A stretch of 30,407 nt of DNA from an uncultured bacterium (GCA_964619725.1 CAZUFC010000103.1:1-30407), one strand, 5' to 3'. Positions 1-30,407 are shown, numbered from the stretch's first letter. Notes: generated by a model from the sequence alone, not told the origin. Numbers and translations: made by a program.

Positions 1-2493
1 CCCGTAAGGCGGATCAGCGCCGGGGACAGGTTCCAGATTTATGCCTGTATAAACCCGGCATAAATTGGCCCGGTCAATGTAATACAGTTCGACTCGATCG
101 ATATCATTTCCTGAAGCGATAGCGAAAAGGTAAATATGACCGCCTTCGGCTTCGGCGATGCTGCTGTTCATCCATCCTGCGGCTAGCATAAAGGGCCGTT
201 CGATCGCCGGCGTCGGCGTTATAGTCCCTACTGCGGTCGGAGAAGGGGTGAATGAAGGTCCGACGCTGGGAGTTAAAGTAGGCGTCCCGGTCGAAGTCGA
301 CGTCGGCGACAGACTTGGCGTAGAACTGCACGTCGCCGTGGGTGAAAGAGTCGACGTCGGACTGTTCGTCGGAACCGGCGTCGTCGTTACGGTGTGACTC
401 AGGGTCGGGCTCGGCGCCGGGGCGGTTGCGTAGATAAGTTTGATATCCTGCTGCGAACCGTTTTTATACAGCACGTATGGAGAATCATTCGAATCCAGTT
501 CAAGTATGACGTTCGATTCTATGGAATATTCCTGATCGAACCGGAAAGGACCGTGCCAGCCGCCGGGACTGGAAAAATATATATAAACCCCGCTAAAATC
601 CTTCCAGAATGCATAAGCCAGCCATACTTCATCTTCAGAATCAACCCTGACGGAAGGATAGACTTTGTATCCTTCGTCAAAAAGAGTCAGGTCCCACGTA
701 TCGGTATATCGTGCCAATATTAATCCCGTATCGTTATCGCTGTAGGCCAAGTAGACCGTCCCGTCGCTCGCCACATCAATGGAACTTATCTTCCCCGTTC
801 CCAGCTCAGGTTCGCTTACTATTTCCAATTCCCAGGCGGAATCCGAATAATGCGCCAATCCCATGGCTGCAGGACTGGATAAATACCCTATATAATACTC
901 CTCATCGTTAAGAACCTTCATGGACATGACTTCAGCCGCGTTTGAGGACTCCATGGTGACGCATTGAGGATCAATCCATTCTTCGCCGAAACCTTTAGTG
1001 AAGTAGACTCCGTTTTGAGGCAGAAAAGCGACGTACATCTGATCCCCGAAGGAATCCATAACGAAGTTGTAGCACAATTGTCCGACGAACTCGTCAGAAG
1101 TTATTTCCCAGACGCCTTGATCTTTCCAGGCGAACCGCAACCCGTCGCCGACTGAATACACCACGCATGGACGATCCTGAGAATCAAGTTCCAGCTCCAC
1201 TTTCAGCAATAGTGCGGGGTAGTGTTTCACCAGTTCGAATTCCCATCCTGAACAGTCACGGTATCCATAAATAATGTTGTCCTGATCGTCGGAAAAAGCT
1301 ATGTGAACGTTGTCGTCAGAATCCAGAGCGATATCATAATCAAAATAGGAAAGATATTCCTCAATATTTTCAATGGTCCAATCATCGCCGTCCTTGACGG
1401 CGGTTTTAAGGTATTGATCGTCCCGACTGACGAAACTCACGACCGGCCGGTCCGTTGAATCATAAGCCAATGAAGCGCAGGCAAAGGAATGATTGTCCGT
1501 ATCTATCTCGTCGAAAACCCACACGCCGTCCTCATTCGTTAAATAAACAAGTTCCTTGTAATAACTCCGCCCGTAAGCTATACCCGGATTTCCCTCAGAA
1601 TCAAAATCAAGACAAACGGTAGGCCGATAAGCCCTCATCTGAGACGTTTCAAATATGTTGACCCACTCCATTTCCCAGGAAGTCCCGTTCCAGTAAACAT
1701 AATTCAAATAGCCGCTGTCTTTGCCGTCGACCTTCTCTTCGTCGTCCATGTACAGAGCGAAATGAGGTATCTGTTGGTTTTTAAGTTTCAGAGAAGTATA
1801 AAAAGAAGTTCCCCCGTACAGAATTTCATGAAATTCCCACGTCGATCCGTTGAATCGACAGTATTTTACCTCTCCGTCATTATTTGCGTCATAAGTAATA
1901 TGAATCCTGTCTTCCGAATCGACGGCTATGGAAGGATATTTGCCGCCAACTGAGCTGTCTTCTATTTGTTGAATTTGCCAGTCACCCGTTTCATTTTTGT
2001 GAAATAAATATAATGAAGATGAGTAATAAGCGGATATCCAGGGATTGCCATCTGAATCATGGGCTATACTGCTGGGAGTCAGACGAAAGGTTTCCTCAAT
2101 TATTACGTCTATTTCCCAAGTACCTGAATTTTTCAAAGCATACCGGTATGTTTGATCCAGTTTATCGAAATAACTTAAATGAATTCTATCTATAGACTCT
2201 ACGCTCATGGAAACGAAAGCTGTTCTTCTGTCGCTGACTAATTCAACTCGCCACTTAGGACCTTCCCGATAATATACCTTCAACTGATCTCCGCCTGTTG
2301 CCAGCACCCGATCGCCGTCCGGCATAACATGCAGACAACGATGCGGAGCCCAGCCTGAAAACCAGGCCGGACATTTTACGCATTCCAGCTTCCATTCGAG
2401 GTCAGCAGATGTGACGCTGAAAAATACTGCAGCGTGAAGCAGGAGCATTAACATTGCTGTTTTCCGGGAATTTAAAGAGATTGAGTAAAACAT
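1..2493 (-). CDS. Large secreted beta-propeller-repeat protein with Pro/Thr/Ser linker and C-terminal domain; 3'-partial, runs off the window start (>=831 aa)
   Basis: Hand translation of both ends from ATG at 2493: signal-peptide-like start (MFYSISLNSRKTAMLMLLLHAAVFFSVTSA); repeated blades such as SIAHDSDGNPWISAY, PSIAVDSEDRIHITY, CLDFDSEGNPGIAY; P/T/S linker at ~205-426; then RPFMLAAGWMNSS...DIDRVELYY in the same frame to position 1. Its absence from the ORF track fits a frame with no stop inside the window. Confidence 0.88.
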   Translation of the reverse strand, partial: MFYSISLNSRKTAMLMLLLHAAVFFSVTSADLEWKLECVKCPAWFSGWAPHRCLHVMPDGDRVLATGGDQLKVYYREGPKWRVELVSDRRTAFVSMSVESIDRIHLSYFDKLDQTYRYALKNSGTWEIDVIIEETFRLTPSSIAHDSDGNPWISAYYSSSLYLFHKNETGDWQIQQIEDSSVGGKYPSIAVDSEDRIHITYDANNDGEVKYCRFNGSTWEFHEILYGGTSFYTSLKLKNQQIPHFALYMDDEEKVDGKDSGYLNYVYWNGTSWEMEWVNIFETSQMRAYRPTVCLDFDSEGNPGIAYGRSYYKELVYLTNEDGVWVFDEIDTDNHSFACASLAYDSTDRPVVSFVSRDDQYLKTAVKDGDDWTIENIEEYLSYFDYDIALDSDDNVHIAFSDDQDNIIYGYRDCSGWEFELVKHYPALLLKVELELDSQDRPCVVYSVGDGLRFAWKDQGVWEITSDEFVGQLCYNFVMDSFGDQMYVAFLPQNGVYFTKGFGEEWIDPQCVTMESSNAAEVMSMKVLNDEEYYIGYLSSPAAMGLAHYSDSAWELEIVSEPELGTGKISSIDVASDGTVYLAYSDNDTGLILARYTDTWDLTLFDEGYKVYPSVRVDSEDEVWLAYAFWKDFSGVYIYFSSPGGWHGPFRFDQEYSIESNVILELDSNDSPYVLYKNGSQQDIKLIYATAPAPSPTLSHTVTTTPVPTNSPTSTLSPTATCSSTPSLSPTSTSTGTPTLTPSVGPSFTPSPTAVGTITPTPAIERPFMLAAGWMNSSIAEAEGGHIYLFAIASGNDIDRVELYYIDRANLCRVYTGINLEPVPGADPPYG
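205..426 (-). repeat. Pro/Thr/Ser-rich low-complexity linker within the 1-2493 CDS
   Basis: Minus frame reads TAPAPSPTLSHTVTTTPVPTNSPTSTLSPTATCSSTPSLSPTSTSTGTPTLTPSVGPSFTPSPTAVGTITPTPA; the + strand VGVGV-type ORF is its shadow. Confidence 0.85.
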
Positions 2494-22656: not shown

Positions 22657-24426
22657 TTAATGAGTTATTTTCATCACTGTCACAATCTCAGGCGGTGAGT
22701 TAAGCTCTGGCATGGGAACAGGTTTGAAATCACCCGTTTGCATAGATAGTTTCAGAAAATTATGTAACTTTAAATTGACTACATTTTCCACAATTATTAC
22801 GGCAATTTCAAACTCATAACCGATATCCGCTGAAATACCATAATGAACGGTTAGTTTCCATTCATTATCTCTTGGATCTACTATAGCCTCTCCCTGCGGC
22901 CACCACATTCCGTGAAATCCTTTATTGCAATGTACAAGCACCCAAAGGTGTTCGCCAGACTTAAGTTTAGCAGAGCCTTTCACGATTCCGGTTCTTCCTA
23001 CACTTTCCCCTTCCATCGGTCGATAAATCGTTATTCCAGTAGACATTGGGATTACTCCTGCGCAATAAGTATTATGAATATCTTCAAATAAAAAATAATA
23101 TTTCTGAGCAGCTTCATCAAAATGATGATTTTCTATATCGCTGGATGCGGCAAGATATAGCTGTTGGTCGAGCTGAGCAATACTTTCATCTGATAATTGA
23201 AGTAAAATGTCATTATAAATTTCGCGAGCTTTGTTTATGTTTGTAGGATTCCCAACAGAAAAAAAATCGTTCGCCTCACAGACTTCTTTAAGCAATCCCT
23301 TCTCCTTGAGTTCTTCGCCGACTGAGGATTTTTTACGCTTCCTTACTATGTTTAAGCTGATAGGTTCACACATCCATACACAATTTGGTTCGTTACTTAT
23401 TATGTCACCAGGATTAATACCCTGATCCTTCGTAAATAATCCAACGTTTATAGAGTAAGCTCCCTCTTCCTGGATTATTATTTCTCCGTAAAAATTACCG
23501 TTGGAGTTTGTCCTGAGTTCTTGTTTTATAAGGAATACGCGCTTATTTTCATCCTTAACGATCGGCAAAAGTTGTAAATTATTTAACTCAAGGAAATTGC
23601 CGACATTTTTAAGGTAGCTGTCCTTATAAAGAAAAGATAAAAATCCGCTTATTTCAATTTTTTCTCTTTCATAACTTTTATACATTTCCCTGGGATTTTT
23701 CATTTTGATTTCAATTTTCAAATCGTTTAATTTTGCATCTGAAATCATCGGTTGCTGGAAAGTTTTACCAATATCAGGAGTTCTCATAAGAAATTTAATA
23801 ATATTTTCGGCGCTGACGCCAATATGAAAATGTTTAGTATTTGTTAGCATGCCAACGACTGACTTTTCCCTAAATATGGGACTCCCTGACATACCGGGGG
23901 TAATCGTACCGCCGCTGAAAACAATATCAGTTTTATACCTTACAAATCTGCAGTTCCTTTCAACATGCCATAATCCATCAATTGCACCTGGAACACCGAT
24001 AACAGTTATTTCATCATTATCCTTGAGAATGACATCCGAATCTATTTCAATTGTTGAAATTTTTCTAGCTTGAATATTCTTGTCTAAATTGAGTCGCAGT
24101 AAGGCAACATCAATGCCCGAATCGATACTTACAAGGCTGGCTGGAAAATTTTCTTCCACACCATAAAGGCGCACTCTGGGATTTTGATCCAAACAAATAT
24201 TCTCACTCGAAGATATCACATGACTTGCAGTTAAGATGTATAGGATGTTGTTTTTTTTCGAAATTATAAAACCAGTTCCCTCACCGCAATCACTTTCCAT
24301 TTGAACGACACAAGATTTCATATTTTCTGTTTCATTTCTGTCTATCAAATATTTTATCATCATTGCAGCAGGCAGAGAAATAATTGCTATTAATAAAATT
24401 GTTACAAACGATGATCGTTTCGTCAT
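22657..24426 (-). CDS. Membrane-anchored or secreted trypsin-like (S1) serine protease with long C-terminal extension
   Basis: GTGFII, ILTASHV (His), IDVALL (Asp), GMSGSPIF (Ser); N-terminal hydrophobic helix; AAGGAG RBS at 24434-24439. Confidence 0.88.
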   Translation of the reverse strand: MTKRSSFVTILLIAIISLPAAMMIKYLIDRNETENMKSCVVQMESDCGEGTGFIISKKNNILYILTASHVISSSENICLDQNPRVRLYGVEENFPASLVSIDSGIDVALLRLNLDKNIQARKISTIEIDSDVILKDNDEITVIGVPGAIDGLWHVERNCRFVRYKTDIVFSGGTITPGMSGSPIFREKSVVGMLTNTKHFHIGVSAENIIKFLMRTPDIGKTFQQPMISDAKLNDLKIEIKMKNPREMYKSYEREKIEISGFLSFLYKDSYLKNVGNFLELNNLQLLPIVKDENKRVFLIKQELRTNSNGNFYGEIIIQEEGAYSINVGLFTKDQGINPGDIISNEPNCVWMCEPISLNIVRKRKKSSVGEELKEKGLLKEVCEANDFFSVGNPTNINKAREIYNDILLQLSDESIAQLDQQLYLAASSDIENHHFDEAAQKYYFLFEDIHNTYCAGVIPMSTGITIYRPMEGESVGRTGIVKGSAKLKSGEHLWVLVHCNKGFHGMWWPQGEAIVDPRDNEWKLTVHYGISADIGYEFEIAVIIVENVVNLKLHNFLKLSMQTGDFKPVPMPELNSPPEIVTVMKITH

Positions 24427-24430
24427 TGCT

Positions 24431-25603
24431 TTACTCCTTTCGTCGTGGCAATATTACTTGTAATAATTTACCGGATGTCAAAATGCCAGAGATAGCAAAT
24501 CCGAAAACAATATAGAATTTTTTTAACTTATTATCATACCACAAAGTATCAAAAATCGATAACCTTAAATCTCGCTCGTGATCACCGCATAAGAGCTTAA
24601 TAACATCAGCTTTTCCACATATTGATATTGATAAGCTGATTTCAGAATTTTGTCCTGTTACAATATGTCCTTTTTCTATTCGAAAATTTTCCATTTTATC
24701 GATTTCTAAGAAATGATAGGGCTTGATTCCGATAGACGGCGCATCTGGATATATTGGATATTCCAATTGAAATTCTTCTAAAAAACTCGATACTATTTTA
24801 TAATGTTCGTCATAACTGCAGAATTTGATTGAGTCAACAGATATTCCCTGCCGAGGAAGAAGATTGATGAAATTAATGTTTTTTTCCGGTAAAGCTAGAG
24901 TCAGCGAATAGTCATTTCCCCATGATTCAGCACGAACACCTTCATCATTTTTCTGAGTTAATGAGAAATTATCGTTATCTTTATCAGAAATGCCATTCAA
25001 TAAAACATTGTTGTAGTGAACTTTGAATGAGTCATTAAGGAAGATTTTAGTCAATGATATCTCGTTTAAACTATTATGAATTTGAATTTTCAAATTTCTC
25101 TCTTTTCTAAATAAAGAAAGTTTAAATCGTGTATTTTTTACAGCCAATATTTTGTCGACCAATCCTGATTCAGTCATTTTGTGATGACTTTTTTTTGAAT
25201 TGATTTTTTGAAAATTTATAAAAGAAAACAACCTGTTTTCATTAGAACCATCAATAATAAGAGGGAAAGGATAAAACAAATTGTTTTTGTTGCATTTAAT
25301 TTGGGGAGCATTCTCTTTATTAATTTCTATTCCGTCGATTTTTGAAAAAAGTTGTAAAGATTCAAAATTGTTGATTCCAATTGAAGAAAAGGGAACTGAA
25401 TTCAGAATTGTACTCAGTTCATCATGAGGCATAGTTAGAGAGAATACAACATTTTGCAATGATATATTTGAATAAATTAGCGTTTTAACGGAAAACAGCA
25501 TAGTAAGGGGAAAGAGAAGCAAAAACAGAAAAGCTGTCCAATAATATTTAATAAACCATTTCTTTGATGAGAAAAAAATATCTTTAACAAAAACAAAAAT
25601 CAT
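24431..25603 (-). CDS. Hypothetical protein with N- and C-terminal TM anchors flanking a beta-rich soluble domain
   Basis: 390-aa ORF; TM-like YYWTAFLFLLLFPLTMLF and FYIVFGFAISGILTSG; ATGA overlap with the upstream stop; ends 4 bp before the protease start. Confidence 0.8.
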   Translation of the reverse strand: MIFVFVKDIFFSSKKWFIKYYWTAFLFLLLFPLTMLFSVKTLIYSNISLQNVVFSLTMPHDELSTILNSVPFSSIGINNFESLQLFSKIDGIEINKENAPQIKCNKNNLFYPFPLIIDGSNENRLFSFINFQKINSKKSHHKMTESGLVDKILAVKNTRFKLSLFRKERNLKIQIHNSLNEISLTKIFLNDSFKVHYNNVLLNGISDKDNDNFSLTQKNDEGVRAESWGNDYSLTLALPEKNINFINLLPRQGISVDSIKFCSYDEHYKIVSSFLEEFQLEYPIYPDAPSIGIKPYHFLEIDKMENFRIEKGHIVTGQNSEISLSISICGKADVIKLLCGDHERDLRLSIFDTLWYDNKLKKFYIVFGFAISGILTSGKLLQVILPRRKE

Positions 25604-26144
25604 TCAATCTTTTTCCTGTGATAAAAAGTCACTCTAAAATTAATTGGTATTTTCTTTTCCTTAGTCAATCCATCAATTGTCAAATCATATTCCCCCTCGA
25701 TTTCCTGGGATGAATCCCAAACAAGGCTAATGGGCGTTTCCGCATAAAGTAAAGGATAAATTCTATGATAAGAATCATTCTCCGAAGATTTTTTCTTTAT
25801 ACTACACTTTAAATCAACAACGTCCCTTATGGCTTTAAAAGCGAAATAATATTCTTTTACTTCTTTGGGAGGTTTTGAATGATAAAATATCGCCGGTGCG
25901 ACACGCTTTTCTCTGCCGATTTTATCTTTCTCCAACACGATTATAAAACCCAAATCAGTCAATTCCATACCGTGAATTTTCATTATCACTTCCTGGTAAG
26001 GCCATTGAAATTCATTATAGCAGTTCTTCCTCCATTTCAGTGATTCTTTTGATTTCATCCAGTAATAAAACTCATTGTCAATTTCTAAAGCAGTTATCTC
26101 GACTTGATTGGACTTTGTTAAATAGAATTTGATTTTCAAGTAAG
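25600..26144 (-). pseudogene. 3' part (179 codons) of a secreted-protein gene interrupted by the 26145-29789 element
   Basis: Joins in frame with 29791-30006 across the AGTAAG duplication: ...RLKRDTY|LKIKFYLTK..., restoring a 251-aa ORF. Confidence 0.9.
26139..26144 (+). repeat. Left target-site duplication AGTAAG
   Basis: The same hexamer lies at 29790-29795, immediately outside the right end. Confidence 0.9.
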
Positions 26145-26193
26145 TGCATAGGTTACACTAAAAAGGACAAAAGTCTGAGGAATTAACCCGACA
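26145..26193 (+). repeat. Left terminal inverted repeat
   Basis: tgcataggttacactaaaaaggacaaaagtctgaggaattaacccgaca; shares TGC, TAGGT, TAAAAAGGACAAAA and ACCCGACA with the reverse complement of 29740-29789. Confidence 0.88.
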
Positions 26194-26218
26194 TCTCCGC
26201 ACGAGTAGGAGATTGAAA

Positions 26219-27343
26219 ATGTCAGAGAAGAAAATAGGCCGTGAAGAGTTAGAGGAAGTGATATGCAAGATCAAGGAATTGGGCATGAGTTATCGTGAAG
26301 GTGCAGAGCATTTCGGGATCAACGTATGGAAGATTTATAATTACAATAAAAGGAAGAAAAAGTCTGAATCGGCGAAACTCGCACAGAATAGATCATCAGA
26401 GTCCGAATCGAAGTGTTCGGTAAAAAAGAAGTCAAAGCTTCCGTCAGAAGTTTCAGACCTGATATCGTCCTATAAGAAGGAGCATCCCGATCATGGATTT
26501 AAACGTATCCAGGATTGTTTAAAACAAAAGCATATGTTGGTAGTGACACGCAAGCAGATACGGAAGGTACTGAAGGAACGCGGAATTCTCAAGTCGACGG
26601 ATTCGAGTTTTGACCATACTCCGGCGAACGATAAAAAGGAACGACGCTTTGAAGCGCCTTATCCGCGTTCAATGTATCAGTTGGATATAACTTACGTATA
26701 TATTCAAGGACATCCTGTTCAGTATTTGCTGAACATAATCGATGATTACAGCCGTTTTTGCCTGGCGGCCGAACTTTGCCTCGATCAGAGCGCAGACGCT
26801 CTGTCTGCGGTATTGCATACAGCGATACTCAGATATGGAAAACCAAAGTGCGTTCTGACGGACCAGGGACCTTCATTTTACAGTTGGAGCATGAACAACA
26901 CGCGTTTTCAACAGTATTTGGACGATATGCGCATCGAACACATAGTAAGCGAACCTCATCACCCCCAGACATTGGGCAAGGTTGAGAGATTTCATCAGAC
27001 AGTAAAAAAAGAACTTTTCTCCAGGCGCAGATTCACAAGCTATGAAGATGCGGTAAAGGGAATCGCCGAATACGTTTCTTATTATAACTTCGAGCGTCCT
27101 CACCAGGGAATAGGAGGCGTTTGTCCTGCGGATCGATTTCACGGAATAGCGGGAGAGCGTCGCCGTGTTGAGGCTGAGCTTTTAAGCAAAATGATAGATT
27201 TATCCCGGGGTTATGTGATATGTAAATTCCGGGACCATACGATCAGCATAGCCGGTTCGTCGGAAGCGGTCAGAGTGTTTCTTGACGGCGATCTCATGGT
27301 TCCGGAAAGGAGAAAAAACGACAATGACGATAGACGAGAGTAA
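26219..27343 (+). CDS. IS481-like DDE transposase (HTH plus rve integrase core)
   Basis: HTH SYREGAEHFGINVWKIY; HPDHGFKRI; DDE motifs YQLDITY / LTDQG / GKVERFHQT; YNFERPHQGIGG..PADRF; AGGAG RBS 7 nt before ATG at 26219. Confidence 0.9.
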   Translation: MSEKKIGREELEEVICKIKELGMSYREGAEHFGINVWKIYNYNKRKKKSESAKLAQNRSSESESKCSVKKKSKLPSEVSDLISSYKKEHPDHGFKRIQDCLKQKHMLVVTRKQIRKVLKERGILKSTDSSFDHTPANDKKERRFEAPYPRSMYQLDITYVYIQGHPVQYLLNIIDDYSRFCLAAELCLDQSADALSAVLHTAILRYGKPKCVLTDQGPSFYSWSMNNTRFQQYLDDMRIEHIVSEPHHPQTLGKVERFHQTVKKELFSRRRFTSYEDAVKGIAEYVSYYNFERPHQGIGGVCPADRFHGIAGERRRVEAELLSKMIDLSRGYVICKFRDHTISIAGSSEAVRVFLDGDLMVPERRKNDNDDRRE

Positions 27344-28643
27344 GCAGTTGAATCTGGTTGAATTTTTAATTCGTCATTACGGAATGGAGTTCAACCGAGA
27401 AGGTAAACGCTGGTCGTCTTTTTCCCCGTTCAAAGAAGAGCGGAACCCCAGTTTCATTGTTCATTGCCGTAACGGACAATGGTTGTATAAAGATTTTTCG
27501 AGCGATTCGGGAGGCAGTATAATAGACTTCATAATGCATAAAGAAGATATTTCTTCGCCGTCTGAAGCTTTGGGATTCATCAATCGAATCAAGGGAACCG
27601 GATATAGGGGAATGACGATTAAACAAGCAGCTGAGAAATCTGAAACCGCCTATGATCTTGATTACGTTTACAGGAAAATCAAGTCGGAGGATGCCGGACC
27701 GGCTTATGAATGGCTTAAACGACGAGGCATAAGCGCTTCTTTGAATGCTGAATTGAAGAAGGCGGATATCGTAAGAGTGAATCGAAAAAATGGTGAGACC
27801 TACTGCTGCTTCGAGGTTCGTGATGAATCTGGAAAATTGCGATGCCTTGACAACCATCAGATCGGCGGGAGGAAAAAGTTCGTTCTCGGTGAAAAGTACT
27901 TGTTTACGCTTGATCATGAACGCCTGAACCGATCGGAGCGCGTGTTCGTTTCCGAAGGAATCGTGGATTGCCTGAGCATTCTCGATATAGAAGGGCATGA
28001 TACGGCTTCCGCAGCCTTGTTGGGGTTGACGACGAAATTTTTGGAACGCCGCATACCTGACGCCGTGGAAATAATATCCGCATTGGATGCCGACGATGCA
28101 GGAATATCGAAAACGCTGGATTTAAAGGAGTCATTTCCCGATAAGAGGGTTACGGCGTATGATATGGAGGATCATAAAGACCCGAATGAATTATTGACGG
28201 CCATACGATCCCAAAAACGAAAATCGTTGTCGCAGGATAAAAGAATGGAACTTTATGAAGATTATATCCGGAGCGAAAACAAAAGCGAAGTCGCCGGGCG
28301 TTGGGGAGTGGATCGTTCATATATGTATGAGATAATAAACGATTGTCGTCGATTTATTCAGGAAGGATATGTTCACAGACGCCCCGGCCGTAAACTCAAA
28401 AACGAACCGAAAAATATGAAAGAAGCGATGGATCGAATTCGCGAACTTGAGCGGGAAAAAAACAAAGCCGAAGCGGAAAAAGAATTATATTACGCCCGCA
28501 GCGAACTTGCATCCGTTCGTCTTAAATATGCTGAGCTTGAAGCTGCGGAGTTGAGAGGCGATACGATACGAAAAAGCCAAACGGACGAACCTCGACCGAA
28601 TAAAAAACGACACATAAAAAAAAAGAAAAAGAGGCAACGGTGA
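27324..28643 (+). CDS. DnaG-like protein: degenerate CHC2-type N-domain, Toprim domain, C-terminal HTH/coiled coil resembling IS3 OrfA
   Basis: SPFKEERNPSF...YKDFSSDSGGSIIDF (CHC2-like but lacking the Cys/His ligands); WLKRRGIS; Toprim VFVSEGIVDCLS, ALDADDAG, KDPNE; HTH KSEVAGRWGVDRSYMYEI; RRPGRK; coiled coil; AGGAG RBS before ATG at 27324. Confidence 0.85.
   Translation: MTIDESKQLNLVEFLIRHYGMEFNREGKRWSSFSPFKEERNPSFIVHCRNGQWLYKDFSSDSGGSIIDFIMHKEDISSPSEALGFINRIKGTGYRGMTIKQAAEKSETAYDLDYVYRKIKSEDAGPAYEWLKRRGISASLNAELKKADIVRVNRKNGETYCCFEVRDESGKLRCLDNHQIGGRKKFVLGEKYLFTLDHERLNRSERVFVSEGIVDCLSILDIEGHDTASAALLGLTTKFLERRIPDAVEIISALDADDAGISKTLDLKESFPDKRVTAYDMEDHKDPNELLTAIRSQKRKSLSQDKRMELYEDYIRSENKSEVAGRWGVDRSYMYEIINDCRRFIQEGYVHRRPGRKLKNEPKNMKEAMDRIRELEREKNKAEAEKELYYARSELASVRLKYAELEAAELRGDTIRKSQTDEPRPNKKRHIKKKKKRQR
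28619..28625 (+). promoter_or_regulatory. Putative -1 programmed ribosomal frameshift heptamer A_AAA_AAG
   Basis: In phase with ORF2 (ATA AAA AAA AAG). The -1 frame is open from 28604 (after TAA at 28601-28603) straight into ORF3. Confidence 0.6.
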
Positions 28644-29749
28644 ACATGATCAAAAAAATTGCTGAAAAGTGTTCCTCTTTGAACATGAAAACAATAATCG
28701 ATCAAACCGATCATTCCCGCAGCAGGATTTATGAATGGATGAAAGGCAATACGGAAAGGAAGTCCAGAAAACGTAAGTCATTGGATTCAGATGTCGTATC
28801 AAATGCAGTGACAGTCGTTGTCCAATATCCCCATTTCGGAGGTCTGAAGGGACAATTGTACATGCTCTATTCCAAAATGGGACTGTTATCCAGGAATAAT
28901 TATCAACGCATTAAGAAGCTCGTTCGCCGAATGATCGCGTGGGAAGTTTACGATCGCCGCCTGATTCAAAAGCAAATCTCATCATACGAGCATCAACGAC
29001 CTTCATCTACGGGTGAGATTTGGGCTGAAGATTTCACTCAAATCGTAGCGGAAGGCAGAACTTTTTATATAGCCGTCGTAATCGATACGGCAAGTATGAT
29101 GTATCTTGGATGGGCCGTGATGTTTCGTCCGTGCGACGGTCTTGTAGCAGCGCCTGTTTTGCAGGCGCTTGAATCTTCCGACGGTAAACCGCCGATTGAG
29201 TTTCTTATCTCAGACAACGGAACGCAATATAAAAGCGAAAAGCACGAAAAATTGCTGGATGAAGCGAAAATCGTTCATAAATGCATACCGTCTTGCGTTC
29301 CCCAGTACAACGGTTCAGTGGAATGCGGGATGAGAGAATTGAAACAGGTGTTTTACGAAAATTGGCGAAATGAACGATTGCCGGAAAACAAAAAAGATAA
29401 GAAAGAAGCGACTAAAGAAAAAAATCTTTTGAAACGAGTTAGGATAACGCTTCAGCAAACTATAGAGGATTTAAATTGCAAAATACCTAGACCGGTTCTG
29501 AACGGAGTCGCTCCGGCAGACGTCCATGATGGAACCGCCAGGGACAAAAGAAAGGAGATTCTTGCCTACAAACAACGAGAACAAAACAGCAGCCCGAGGA
29601 AACCTCTCGATGTTCCCTTGTGGAAAGCCGTAAAAAATACGCTGGTGGGTATTGAAATGGATAATCGAAATTTATTAATCACACACCGCCTGCTGCATAA
29701 AAAACCGCTACGGCGGGTGGCGAAAATGATGCGGGAAGGTGTCGGGTAA
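28640..29749 (+). CDS. Second DDE integrase-core protein (IS3 OrfB-like)
   Basis: YPHFGG; DDE motifs IWAEDFT / LISDNGTQY / NGSVECGM; PRPVLNGVAP; lies in the -1 frame relative to ORF2; stop codon is inside the right TIR. Confidence 0.85.
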   Translation: MNMIKKIAEKCSSLNMKTIIDQTDHSRSRIYEWMKGNTERKSRKRKSLDSDVVSNAVTVVVQYPHFGGLKGQLYMLYSKMGLLSRNNYQRIKKLVRRMIAWEVYDRRLIQKQISSYEHQRPSSTGEIWAEDFTQIVAEGRTFYIAVVIDTASMMYLGWAVMFRPCDGLVAAPVLQALESSDGKPPIEFLISDNGTQYKSEKHEKLLDEAKIVHKCIPSCVPQYNGSVECGMRELKQVFYENWRNERLPENKKDKKEATKEKNLLKRVRITLQQTIEDLNCKIPRPVLNGVAPADVHDGTARDKRKEILAYKQREQNSSPRKPLDVPLWKAVKNTLVGIEMDNRNLLITHRLLHKKPLRRVAKMMREGVG

Positions 29750-29789
29750 TTTCTATGATTTTTTGTCCTTTTTATCTTGACCTAGCGCA
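29740..29789 (-). repeat. Right terminal inverted repeat
   Basis: Reverse complement is tgcgctaggtcaagataaaaaggacaaaaaatcatagaaattacccgaca. Confidence 0.88.
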
Positions 29790-30006
29790 AGTAAGTATCT
29801 CTTTTTAGTCTCGCCTTGTCGGTGTAATGGACTTGGAACGCCAATAATTCAATATTTTGTGCCGAAATCGGCTTACTTTTTATACCCTCATACCTGTTTC
29901 CCCTGTCTTTATAATCCAAGTCAGCGCCGGCGCAAACTTCGGTTGACCACCAAGCAGTGAAAAAAAACAAAACGATTATGTCAGTTAACAGTTTCGGTTT
30001 TTTCAT
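29790..30006 (-). pseudogene. 5' part (72 codons, signal peptide) of the interrupted gene; includes the right TSD at 29790-29795
   Basis: MKKPKLLTDIIVLFFFTAWWSTEVCA signal-like start; the ORF now stops at a TAG inside the right TIR; frame continues at 26139 once the element is removed. Confidence 0.9.
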
Positions 30007-30407
30007 AGCAACTAATCCTTATTTCCCAATATTTCTGAAAATGCAGCACGCAGGAAAAATGTAAAAAATTAAATTATTTTTTAAAAAGGAATTGTACTTT
30101 TTTTTCCAATTCGATTGCATAATGAAAACCATAATTTCAATTTTCCGATTATTCGGGCAAATTGATCGTTGAGAAGTTCACTTTTCATGATTTCTTATTC
30201 CAGAATCAAAAAAATTTCGGAAACATAAAGAATAAGAAGGAACCGAATCGTTTGATTTTCCATAAGAGTAGACCCTCCTTACATAAGAACATTTTAGTAA
30301 GTATCAGAAAAAGGCGAAAATGTCAACCGACTGACGAACGGATTGAAGAAATTTTGTGTCTTTCCGGCAAGCGTGCTTAACAATCCCTGCCCGCCGTGGC
30401 TATCATT

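Follow-up and report, generated by a model that had tools for sequence, protein, structure and literature searches.

A 3,645-bp segment at positions 26145-29789 of a 30,407-nucleotide stretch of DNA from an uncultured bacterium (GCA_964619725.1, CAZUFC010000103.1:1-30407; the whole stretch is hereafter called the window) has the organization of an intact, single-unit insertion sequence (IS) of a widespread three-gene family in the IS481/IS3 (rve DDE) lineage. The element carries three open reading frames (ORFs): ORF1 and ORF3, which encode two different DDE proteins, and, between them, ORF2, which encodes a protein with a zinc-less, DnaG-like domain. The family has compound ends, a 6-bp target-site duplication (TSD) at the sequence NYTARN, a fixed order of three genes that have diverged together, and invariant catalytic residues. 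We give the account as a whole, including the hypothesis that ORF2 has a priming role in copy-out replication, an even chance of being right.

The element is a single transposable unit

The element has tips of the form TGC...GCA, and a repeat search of the window identifies, inside these tips, an outer pair of inverted arms (26149-26172 and 29761-29784; 24 nt, 83% identity) and an inner inverted pair (26180-26196 and 29737-29753; 17 nt, 82% identity). In-silico deletion of positions 26145-29795, which removes the element together with one copy of the flanking hexamer AGTAAG, yields one uninterrupted minus-strand host ORF of 251 codons with a signal-peptide-like N-terminus; because excision restores a single ORF, we conclude that the insertion split a host gene. 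The ends, the AGTAAG duplication and the restored host ORF bear out the original prediction, made from the sequence of the window, of a single transposable unit with terminal inverted repeats (TIRs) and a 6-bp TSD. The accompanying claim that the element contains no internal inverted repeat likewise holds: the inner-box motif of the ends (see below) occurs twice within 25000-30407, once per end and never internally, and a blastn-short search of window 24001-30407 with 14 family end sequences gives matches solely at the two ends. The sequencing data examined comprise assembled contigs from 4 DNA runs of one study; the depth over the element equals the depth over its flanks in the likely source run, and a contig from a second sample (record 11) bridges the left junction.

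The three ORFs overlap, as predicted, by 20 nt (ORF1/ORF2) and by 4 nt (ORF2/ORF3; GTGA). Their Pfam domains are rve for ORF1, Zn_ribbon_DnaG and Toprim_2 for ORF2, and rve for ORF3. The probable start of ORF1 is the ATG at 26219, which is preceded by AGGAGA; the ORF2 start at ATG 27324 is common to its homologues, and its product is identical to database protein P0001; the final codons and the stop of ORF3 fall within the inner box B of the right end. With the NCBIfam IS481 model (NF033577), ORF1 aligns over model positions 5-284 of 284 and scores 201.1 bits against a cut-off of 224, a near miss that nevertheless points to IS481 as its closest family. With the NCBIfam IS3 model (NF033516; cut-off 160), ORF3 scores 77.1 bits, its best score, and ORF1 scores 143.3 bits. 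The DDE triads of ORF1 (D158/D217/E258) and ORF3 (D131/D192/E228) are invariant in 41/41 aligned family members. The original prediction held that both integrases retain their D-D-E motifs and that the Toprim domain retains its E and DxD, and all of these residues prove to be invariant in the same 41 members. A complex prediction with ORF1 140-376, ORF3 100-369 and ORF2 1-300, run with no controls, returned a score of 0.00, and nothing is inferred from it.

The three genes recur and co-diverge as one family

Relatives of ORF2 are numerous, with 320 candidates at E <= 0.001 among 8000 scored and hundreds of full-length sequences. The 119 non-self matches listed are 41-47% identical to ORF2, and most lie on contigs of ~2-5 kb, the size expected of a collapsed multi-copy repeat. 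We retrieved family loci from species-representative genomes and metagenomes with a profile of 22 ORF2 relatives (profile A1), and we determined the gene content of each locus by tblastn with the three window proteins; a single-sequence ORF2 query of genome contigs retrieved no loci, whereas the profile query did. Among the genome loci, ORF1, ORF2 and ORF3 occur in the same order and on the same strand in 15 of 25 strong loci, whose titles name Gemmatimonadota, Acidobacteriota, several Desulfobacterota, Pseudomonadota, 'Eubacteriales', Neomarinimicrobiota and Caldithrix. In the remaining 10, the locus is interrupted by a contig end, degraded or truncated (L017, L018, L021-L026), or it holds a short form (L019, L020). 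Among the metagenome loci, the three genes occur in order in 60/80; 8 begin in or just before ORF2, 5 stop in or just after ORF2, and the remaining 7 have a short ORF2-like gene alone. At a looser threshold, the missing neighbour was recovered in L166 and L151.

The three proteins have a common history. For 41 loci (the window, 8 genome loci and 32 metagenome loci, all with the three proteins at full length, and with split or truncated matches excluded), the pairwise-identity matrices of the three proteins correlate with r = 0.91-0.95, and 0 of 999 permutations in a Mantel test gave a value as high. Pairwise identity across the 41 members ranges from 38 to 100%, and family elements are 3.6-4.0 kb in size. 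We conclude that the three ORFs almost certainly constitute a real recurrent family. Full-text literature searches, which do not extend to ISfinder or subscription journals, returned no account of an IS that combines two rve proteins with a DnaG-like protein, and none of transposon-associated zinc-less primases; to our knowledge, no other IS has two rve DDE proteins. The proposal that this is a distinct element class, not recognized as a described one, is in line with these findings.

Several members of the family deserve separate mention. On a complete chromosome of a metagenome-assembled genome (MAG), L008:5528-8459 is a 5'-truncated copy in which ORF1 is cut down to residues 236-362. In the cultured Desulfobulbus alkaliphilus DSM 24258, the family is present only as contigs of 0.5-2 kb (L021, L024, L025); the contig names give high coverage (183-655x, without the assembly baseline for comparison), and a 547-bp piece occurs in two variants, which suggests many copies in this strain. 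Another cultured bacterium, Desulfosarcina cetonica JCM 12296, carries a short form. In a subfamily of 3.9-4.0 kb, ORF3 is separated from the right end by a conserved, non-coding insert of ~370 bp (L006:8411-8780; also L118, L121, L124, L125, L130, L133, L134, L138, L145 and L147), bracketed by a duplicated inner box B. The insert has conserved cores, one of which is followed by a T-run, and gives no Rfam match in L006 or L121; the cores could represent a small RNA or extra binding sites.

The ends are compound and have the parts of a candidate junction promoter

Using 14 end sequences as probes, we recovered 42 left and 55 right family ends. Three parts are common to every end: a tip, which is TGC except for TGT in two right ends; an inner box A (positions ~16-28, core CGGACA); and an inner box B (positions ~38-50, AATTnCCCCACAC). 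Boxes A and B stand at equal distances from the tip on left and right ends. Positions 4-15, in contrast, differ between left and right, and the difference is conserved family-wide. In the compound left end (IRL), the sequence TAnnnT, with its middle bases free, occupies positions 10-15, 9 nt from the tip, in 35 of 38 distinct left ends. The compound right end (IRR) carries the complement of TTGnnn at positions 8-13, with CAA at positions 11-13 in 47 of the 48 hexamers listed. Abutted ends would space these -35-like and -10-like hexamers by 16+n nt, where n is the junction spacer, and a simple promoter scan found no sigma-70-like site within the integrated IRL. A junction promoter is a hallmark of circle-forming IS (IS911 and others). 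We regard a circle intermediate with such a promoter as an evenly balanced proposition.

The target site is likewise consistent across the family. TA occupies positions 3-4 of the flank hexamer in 70 of 90 cases, vs 2 of 89 control dinucleotides, and the consensus is N-Y-T-A-R-N. A second perfect TSD, ACTAGA, is present in L006. We ascribe the lack of a TSD in other end pairs to chimeric flanks on short repeat contigs, which is an assumption. On two short contigs, L128 and L165, the sequence just outside the left end (6-8 nt) is an exact reverse complement of that outside the right end, with no direct repeat; possible reasons are insertion into a palindromic site or an artefact of assembly at a repeat.

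ORF2 and ORF3 have the organization of a recoding pair

The ORF3 frame lies at -1 relative to ORF2 and, in the window, is open from 28604, upstream of a run of nine A residues and a G (A9G) that encodes the ORF2 tail ..IKKKKK... The -1 relation is shared by 17 of 18 genome-derived loci and 64 of 67 metagenome loci (81/85 in all; one further metagenome locus was omitted as partial). Among the 67 metagenome loci the run is A9 in 54, A10 in 5, A11 in 1 and A8 or shorter in the remainder, and it is preserved at the nucleotide level, GC-rich hosts included. Natural in-frame fusions of 792-816 residues, with the order Zn_ribbon-Toprim-rve, are represented by P0121, P0122, P0124 and P0130; the alignment with P0122 spans all 369 ORF3 residues, and P0015 carries the predicted ORF2-ORF3 junction. 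The simulated -1 product of the window ORF2-ORF3 is 808 residues.

Given the -1 position of ORF3 after a conserved A9G run, and the existence of natural fusions, ORF2 and ORF3 behave as an IS3-type OrfA/OrfAB pair. We strongly infer that they are an OrfA/OrfB pair, with ORF2 an OrfA-like DNA-binding protein that bears a primase-like head, and that ORF1 is a separate IS481-type transposase. Recoding very probably makes an ORF2-ORF3 fusion protein, which would be the main form in which the second DDE enzyme is produced. The view of three ORFs in the original prediction is correct as to the ORF calls but overlooked this pair, with ORF3 in the -1 frame and A9G at 28616-28625. The mechanism at the A9 run could be ribosomal frameshifting or RNA-polymerase slippage; one study reports that IS genes use transcriptional slippage and that runs of A9 length are prone to it (PMC1088944).

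ORF2 has a predicted DnaG-type fold with all acidic Toprim residues and no zinc ligands

An AlphaFold2 model of ORF2 (mean pLDDT, the model's per-residue confidence score, 82) has a small beta-rich N-terminal domain and an alpha/beta core. The best Foldseek matches of the model are Aquifex DnaG (2au3; E 1.5e-12) and the T7 gp4 primase fragment (1nui; root-mean-square deviation 3.3 over 172 columns), and further matches are the B. subtilis and E. coli DnaG cores and T4 gp61 (PDB list: 2au3, 5guj, 1nui, 8dvf, 1eqn). Five acidic Toprim residues, E211, D215, D255, D257 and D286 (motifs EGxxD and DxD, and the D of KDPN), are invariant in 41/41 members, as are K185 and N288; K191 is conserved across the family alignment. 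The K185/K191 stretch, aligned by eye, presumably corresponds to the basic-ridge motif of DnaG. In a profile alignment to 2au3 and 1d0q, S, T/K, D and S replace the DnaG zinc ligands C, H, C and C. By fold prediction and alignment, the ORF2 domain thus looks like a primase with an intact metal centre, without zinc and without a helicase-binding part. The description of ORF2 as a primase-like Toprim protein stands as regards the DnaG-type fold and the acidic residues; it overlooked that the zinc ligands of the N-terminal domain are all replaced.

We considered and rejected the identification of ORF2 as a host or phage replicative primase: the genome has its own dnaG-like gene (G000:C13), and ORF2 relatives travel with transposases. 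A search of 40 relatives of the window's genome with the ORF2 profile gave N-terminal matches to housekeeping DnaG-type proteins alone, and a plasmid collection contained no DNA match to the element and no protein match to ORF2.

Zinc-less relatives of ORF2 accompany other transposase types

A profile search of 1.84 billion representatives returned 52 clusters at E <= 1e-30. Housekeeping DnaG proteins match the ORF2 profile over the N-terminal third alone (~1e-17 to 1e-23), and plasmid- and phage-type primases among the same matches retain C-H-C-C. In contrast, short forms of ~300 residues have the same zinc-less signature as ORF2, and the acidic Toprim residues and N288 are invariant in them too. 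Such short forms are located directly downstream of IS21-type IstA and IstB (L019:3813-6915, L180:489-4966) or after IstB (L179:2-1592), and are joined C-terminally to an IS110-type DEDD transposase (L183:259-2628, 789 residues; P0134, 797 residues). Other neighbours of short forms are RadC (L185) and a HerA/FtsK-like ATPase (L020).

Since the primase-like module is present with the family described here, with IS21 and with IS110, it is common to three transposase types. A study that covers IEE (insertion sequence excision enhancer, a PrimPol-helicase) lists IS3, IS21 and IS110 among families with circular intermediates, and describes IEE as a trans-acting PrimPol that acts on such IS (bioRxiv 10.1101/2023.06.07.543989). 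The proposed link between primase-like proteins and circle-forming transposition appears strengthened by the zinc-less relatives associated with IS21 and IS110. A broader generalization, which we put forward as doubtful, is that of self-priming IS: a zinc-less DnaG-type clade would have been recruited by three unrelated circle-forming types (IS481/IS3-like DDE, IS21 IstA/IstB, IS110 DEDD), each starting its own copy-out or circle DNA synthesis, and in the element described here the primase would be brought to the ends by -1 recoding fusion to the second DDE protein and would work with the IS481-type transposase in a two-transposase transpososome.

Proposed mechanism and alternatives

According to the mechanism that we propose, a -1 shift on the A9G run would yield an ~808-residue protein that combines the primase-like domain, a helix-turn-helix (HTH), a coiled coil and a DDE domain. 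The element would move by copy-out-paste-in through a circle or an abutted-ends intermediate, in which IRR TTGnnn and IRL TAnnnT would form a junction promoter. Each transposase probably recognizes both ends, by way of the two common inner boxes and with two sets of HTH domains. The zinc-less DnaG-type domain would reach the ends by means of its own HTH and of its fusion with the DDE domain; once there, the primase-like head may prime or otherwise start copy-out DNA synthesis, and the element would thereby rely less on the host primosome. The priming role itself is a tentative proposal to which we assign somewhat less than an even chance.

Several findings weigh against this account. All four zinc ligands of ORF2 are replaced (S34 in 41/41 members, no His at the second position, D57 in 39/41, S60 in 35/41), and DnaG-type primases need the zinc-binding domain for template recognition and primer initiation, because of which the loss of zinc may mean the loss of priming. 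A helicase or helicase-binding domain is absent from ORF2 by Pfam, with the HTH and the long helix in its place. The 16+n spacing of the candidate junction promoter would work only with 0-2 bp between the abutted ends. Gene order and ends, two of the three features that the original prediction named for a check, do recur at independent loci; the third, the TSD, is perfect in 2 of 27 end pairs (the window and L006, both on long contigs) and matches at 5/6 positions in 3 more. The window's genome contains just one full copy, so that recent activity there is unproven. Neither a circle junction nor an empty site is seen in the contigs from the 4 runs, and contigs cannot show rare forms. At the family level, L148 is a possible exception to the gene order, with a full ORF2, 305 nt upstream of it and no ORF1; L017 and L022 are truncated, with ORF2 beginning at residues 43 and 177, respectively, and no ORF1 upstream; and L016, L113, L118 and L176 have an A8 run and a different frame relation. 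The truncated copies L008, L017 and L022 indicate that family copies decay.

Other readings of the same evidence have to be weighed against the priming role. It is unlikely that the primase-like domain is catalytically idle and serves for DNA binding or targeting (single-stranded DNA, fork) or as an OrfA-type regulatory module. An idle domain would agree with the loss of all zinc ligands, and ORF2 alone does resemble an enlarged IS3 OrfA, with HTH, long helix and basic tail; OrfA proteins regulate IS3-family elements. However, the five acidic Toprim residues and N288 are invariant in 41/41 members at 38-100% identity, and these are also invariant in the short forms that accompany IS21 and IS110, which is hard to explain without catalysis or metal binding.

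It is distinctly unlikely that the Toprim domain acts as a nuclease that cuts the second (5') strand at the ends or resolves a branched intermediate, as part of a heteromeric cleavage machine like that of TnsA with TnsB in Tn7. Toprim folds are also found in nucleases and topoisomerases, the metal-binding acidic residues are invariant while the primase zinc site is gone, and the domain is physically fused to the DDE domain by recoding. Against a nuclease, the whole N-terminal 300 residues match DnaG, T7 and T4 primases, including the zinc-binding-domain fold and the RNA-polymerase N-terminal subdomain; K185 and K191 are conserved, in what we take, by eye, to be the basic ridge; and the module also accompanies the IS110 DEDD and IS21 transposases, which use a different chemistry; this points to a circle-intermediate step and not to DDE strand cleavage.

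With regard to the division of labour between the two transposases, the original prediction suggested that one DDE transposase acts at each end and that this accounts for the divergent TIRs. The left-right differences at positions 4-15 are conserved family-wide and both DDE triads are invariant, as that suggestion would have it, but left and right ends share the two conserved inner boxes, equally far from the tips, so that the predicted binding sites appear symmetric, and the differences reduce to TAnnnT (35/38) and TTGnnn (47/48 listed), a split -10/-35 pattern and not two protein-specific sites. We regard one transposase per end as improbable and favour binding of both proteins at both ends. 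Finally, the best matches of ORF1 and ORF3 to different NCBIfam IS families, and the MAG source with its estimated contamination, would be compatible with a chance event in which an IS3-like element and a primase gene inserted into or next to an IS481 element, or with an assembly chimera. Both can be set aside: 75 loci, drawn from independent assemblies and several phyla, repeat the gene order, the overlaps, the ends and the A-run; the divergence of the three proteins is correlated (r 0.91-0.95); internal end motifs are absent; and the second-sample contig bridges the left junction.

Host gene and genomic setting

The coordinates of the element, its parts and the disrupted host gene are collected in Table 1.

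Table 1. Features of the element and its insertion site, in window coordinates
Feature	Position	Strand	Description
Disrupted host gene, 3' part	25600-26144	-	in-silico excision
Left TSD copy	26139-26144	none	AGTAAG, directly outside left tip; fits NYTARN target
Compound left end (IRL)	26145-26194	+	TGC tip, -10-like hexamer, inner boxes A and B
IRL -10-like hexamer	26154-26159		TACACT
IRL inner box A	~26159-26172		..GGACA..
IRL inner box B	26181-26194		AATTnCCC[C/G]ACA[C/T]
ORF1	26213-27343	+	376 aa; IS481-like DDE (rve), N-terminal HTH, conserved C-terminal extension of ~70 aa
ORF2	27324-28643	+	439 aa; open frame from 27282; OrfA equivalent
ORF2, N-terminal and core layout	aa 1-91; aa ~112-300		zinc-less DnaG-type zinc-binding-domain fold; DnaG/T7-type RNA-polymerase/Toprim core
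ORF2, C-terminal layout	aa ~304-351; aa 365-410; tail		HTH; long helix; lysine-rich, disordered basic tail
A9G slippery run	28616-28625	+	A AAA AAA AAG in ORF2 frame; proposed -1 recoding site
ORF3	28640-29749	+	369 aa; second DDE (rve) protein, OrfB equivalent
Compound right end (IRR)	29739-29789	-	inner boxes B and A, -35-like hexamer, tip ..GCA
IRR inner box B	29739-29751		
IRR inner box A	~29761-29775		
IRR -35-like hexamer	29777-29782		TTGACC; 7 nt from tip
Right TSD copy	29790-29795	none	AGTAAG, directly outside right tip
Disrupted host gene, 5' part	29790-30006	-	signal-peptide-like N-terminus; ORF call and in-silico excision

The 251-residue host product is secreted-looking, and a Pfam search with it gave no match and no known family. 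No homologue of the disrupted gene was found in 40 relatives of the window's genome, none of which is closer to it than the same phylum; because those relatives lack a homologue, a natural empty site is not demonstrable. The disrupted gene is the first in a minus-strand run (window 22657-26139 and 29790-30006) that also encodes a 390-residue protein of no known family and a 589-residue trypsin-like peptidase, and the insertion may be polar on the downstream minus-strand genes.

The window's genome is a MAG with an estimated contamination of 6.5%. Besides the one full copy, it includes a 1.7-kb contig (G000:C341; L106:1-1704) with a diverged, partial second family member, which retains the C-terminal part of ORF2, an A9 run and an ORF3 with 41% identity to that of the window; this member could represent a second lineage within that organism or contamination of the bin. 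Within window 30223-30407, the summed contig depth rises to ~100x in the likely source run and several contigs diverge at 30348-30357; therefore some repeated sequence begins near the right end of the window. At Rfam gathering thresholds, neither the window nor any of three related loci matches a family.

Significance

Copy-out-paste-in is a major IS pathway, and how replication of the copied-out strand is initiated is unclear. An element-encoded, primase-like enzyme on a transposase would make the question of how replication starts directly testable, and two conserved DDE proteins, both catalytically intact as judged by their residues, provide a natural system for the study of labour division in a transpososome. 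In metagenomes from sediments, mats and the subsurface the family is common, assembled into short repeat contigs, and its genes are now annotated piecemeal as 'DNA primase', 'transposase' or 'hypothetical'; its recognition would aid both annotation and MAG assembly. Cultured carriers exist, with fragments in Desulfobulbus alkaliphilus DSM 24258 and the short form in Desulfosarcina cetonica JCM 12296.

Comparison with known systems

The IS481 family is defined by a single transposase ORF as the sole transposition gene, whereas the element described here has three co-evolving ORFs, two of them with DDE triads, and so falls outside that definition. It resembles IS481 elements (IS481 of Bordetella; ISRe46/TnRErm46 of Rhodococcus equi) in that ORF1 aligns end to end with the family model, at 201 bits. 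The 6-bp duplication is a second likeness: it occurs at palindromic NYTARN here and, as reported for the IS481-family element ISRe46, as 6-bp NCTAGN repeats there (PMC6794481). It differs from ISRe46 in its tips, which are TGC here and TGT there, and from the family in that ORF1 falls below the cut-off of 224. Moreover, the second DDE gene and the primase-like gene are not cargo: they co-evolve with ORF1, and ORF3 ends within IRR.

Elements of the IS3 family, such as IS911, make OrfA and OrfAB by programmed -1 frameshifting and move by copy-out-paste-in via a circle with a junction promoter; their direct repeats are 3-5 bp. The element resembles them in that ORF2 has an HTH and a long helix and is followed by the rve protein ORF3 in the -1 frame behind an A-rich run, with expression of the fusion predicted, and in its TG..CA tips, its -35-like hexamer in IRR and its -10-like hexamer in IRL. 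It differs from them in its 6-bp duplication, in the score of ORF3 (77 bits vs the cut-off of 160), in an A9G run in place of A6G, in the primase-like N-terminal domain of 300 residues on its OrfA equivalent, and in the extra, IS481-like transposase gene upstream.

ORF2 shares with DnaG-type primases (DnaG, the T7 gp4 fragment, T4 gp61) the fold of a zinc-binding domain and an RNA-polymerase/Toprim core, and the acidic motifs EGxxD, DxD and D-P-N/D. It differs from them in that the CHC2 ligands are all replaced, in that an HTH/coiled-coil C-terminus is present and a helicase-binding or helicase domain is not, and in that ORF2 is IS-encoded and joined to a transposase through recoding. IEE, which invites comparison with ORF2, is a primase-class enzyme functionally tied to circle-forming IS families (bioRxiv 10.1101/2023.06.07.543989). 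IEE, however, is an archaeo-eukaryotic-type PrimPol with a helicase that lies outside the IS, acts in trans and promotes excision, whereas ORF2 is DnaG-type, element-encoded and without a helicase. Finally, the element resembles IS21, with IstA and IstB, and Tn7, with TnsA and TnsB, in that transposition needs or uses more than a single element-encoded protein; it differs from both in that, by Pfam, the three ORFs of the family include no AAA+ ATPase and no TnsA-type endonuclease.

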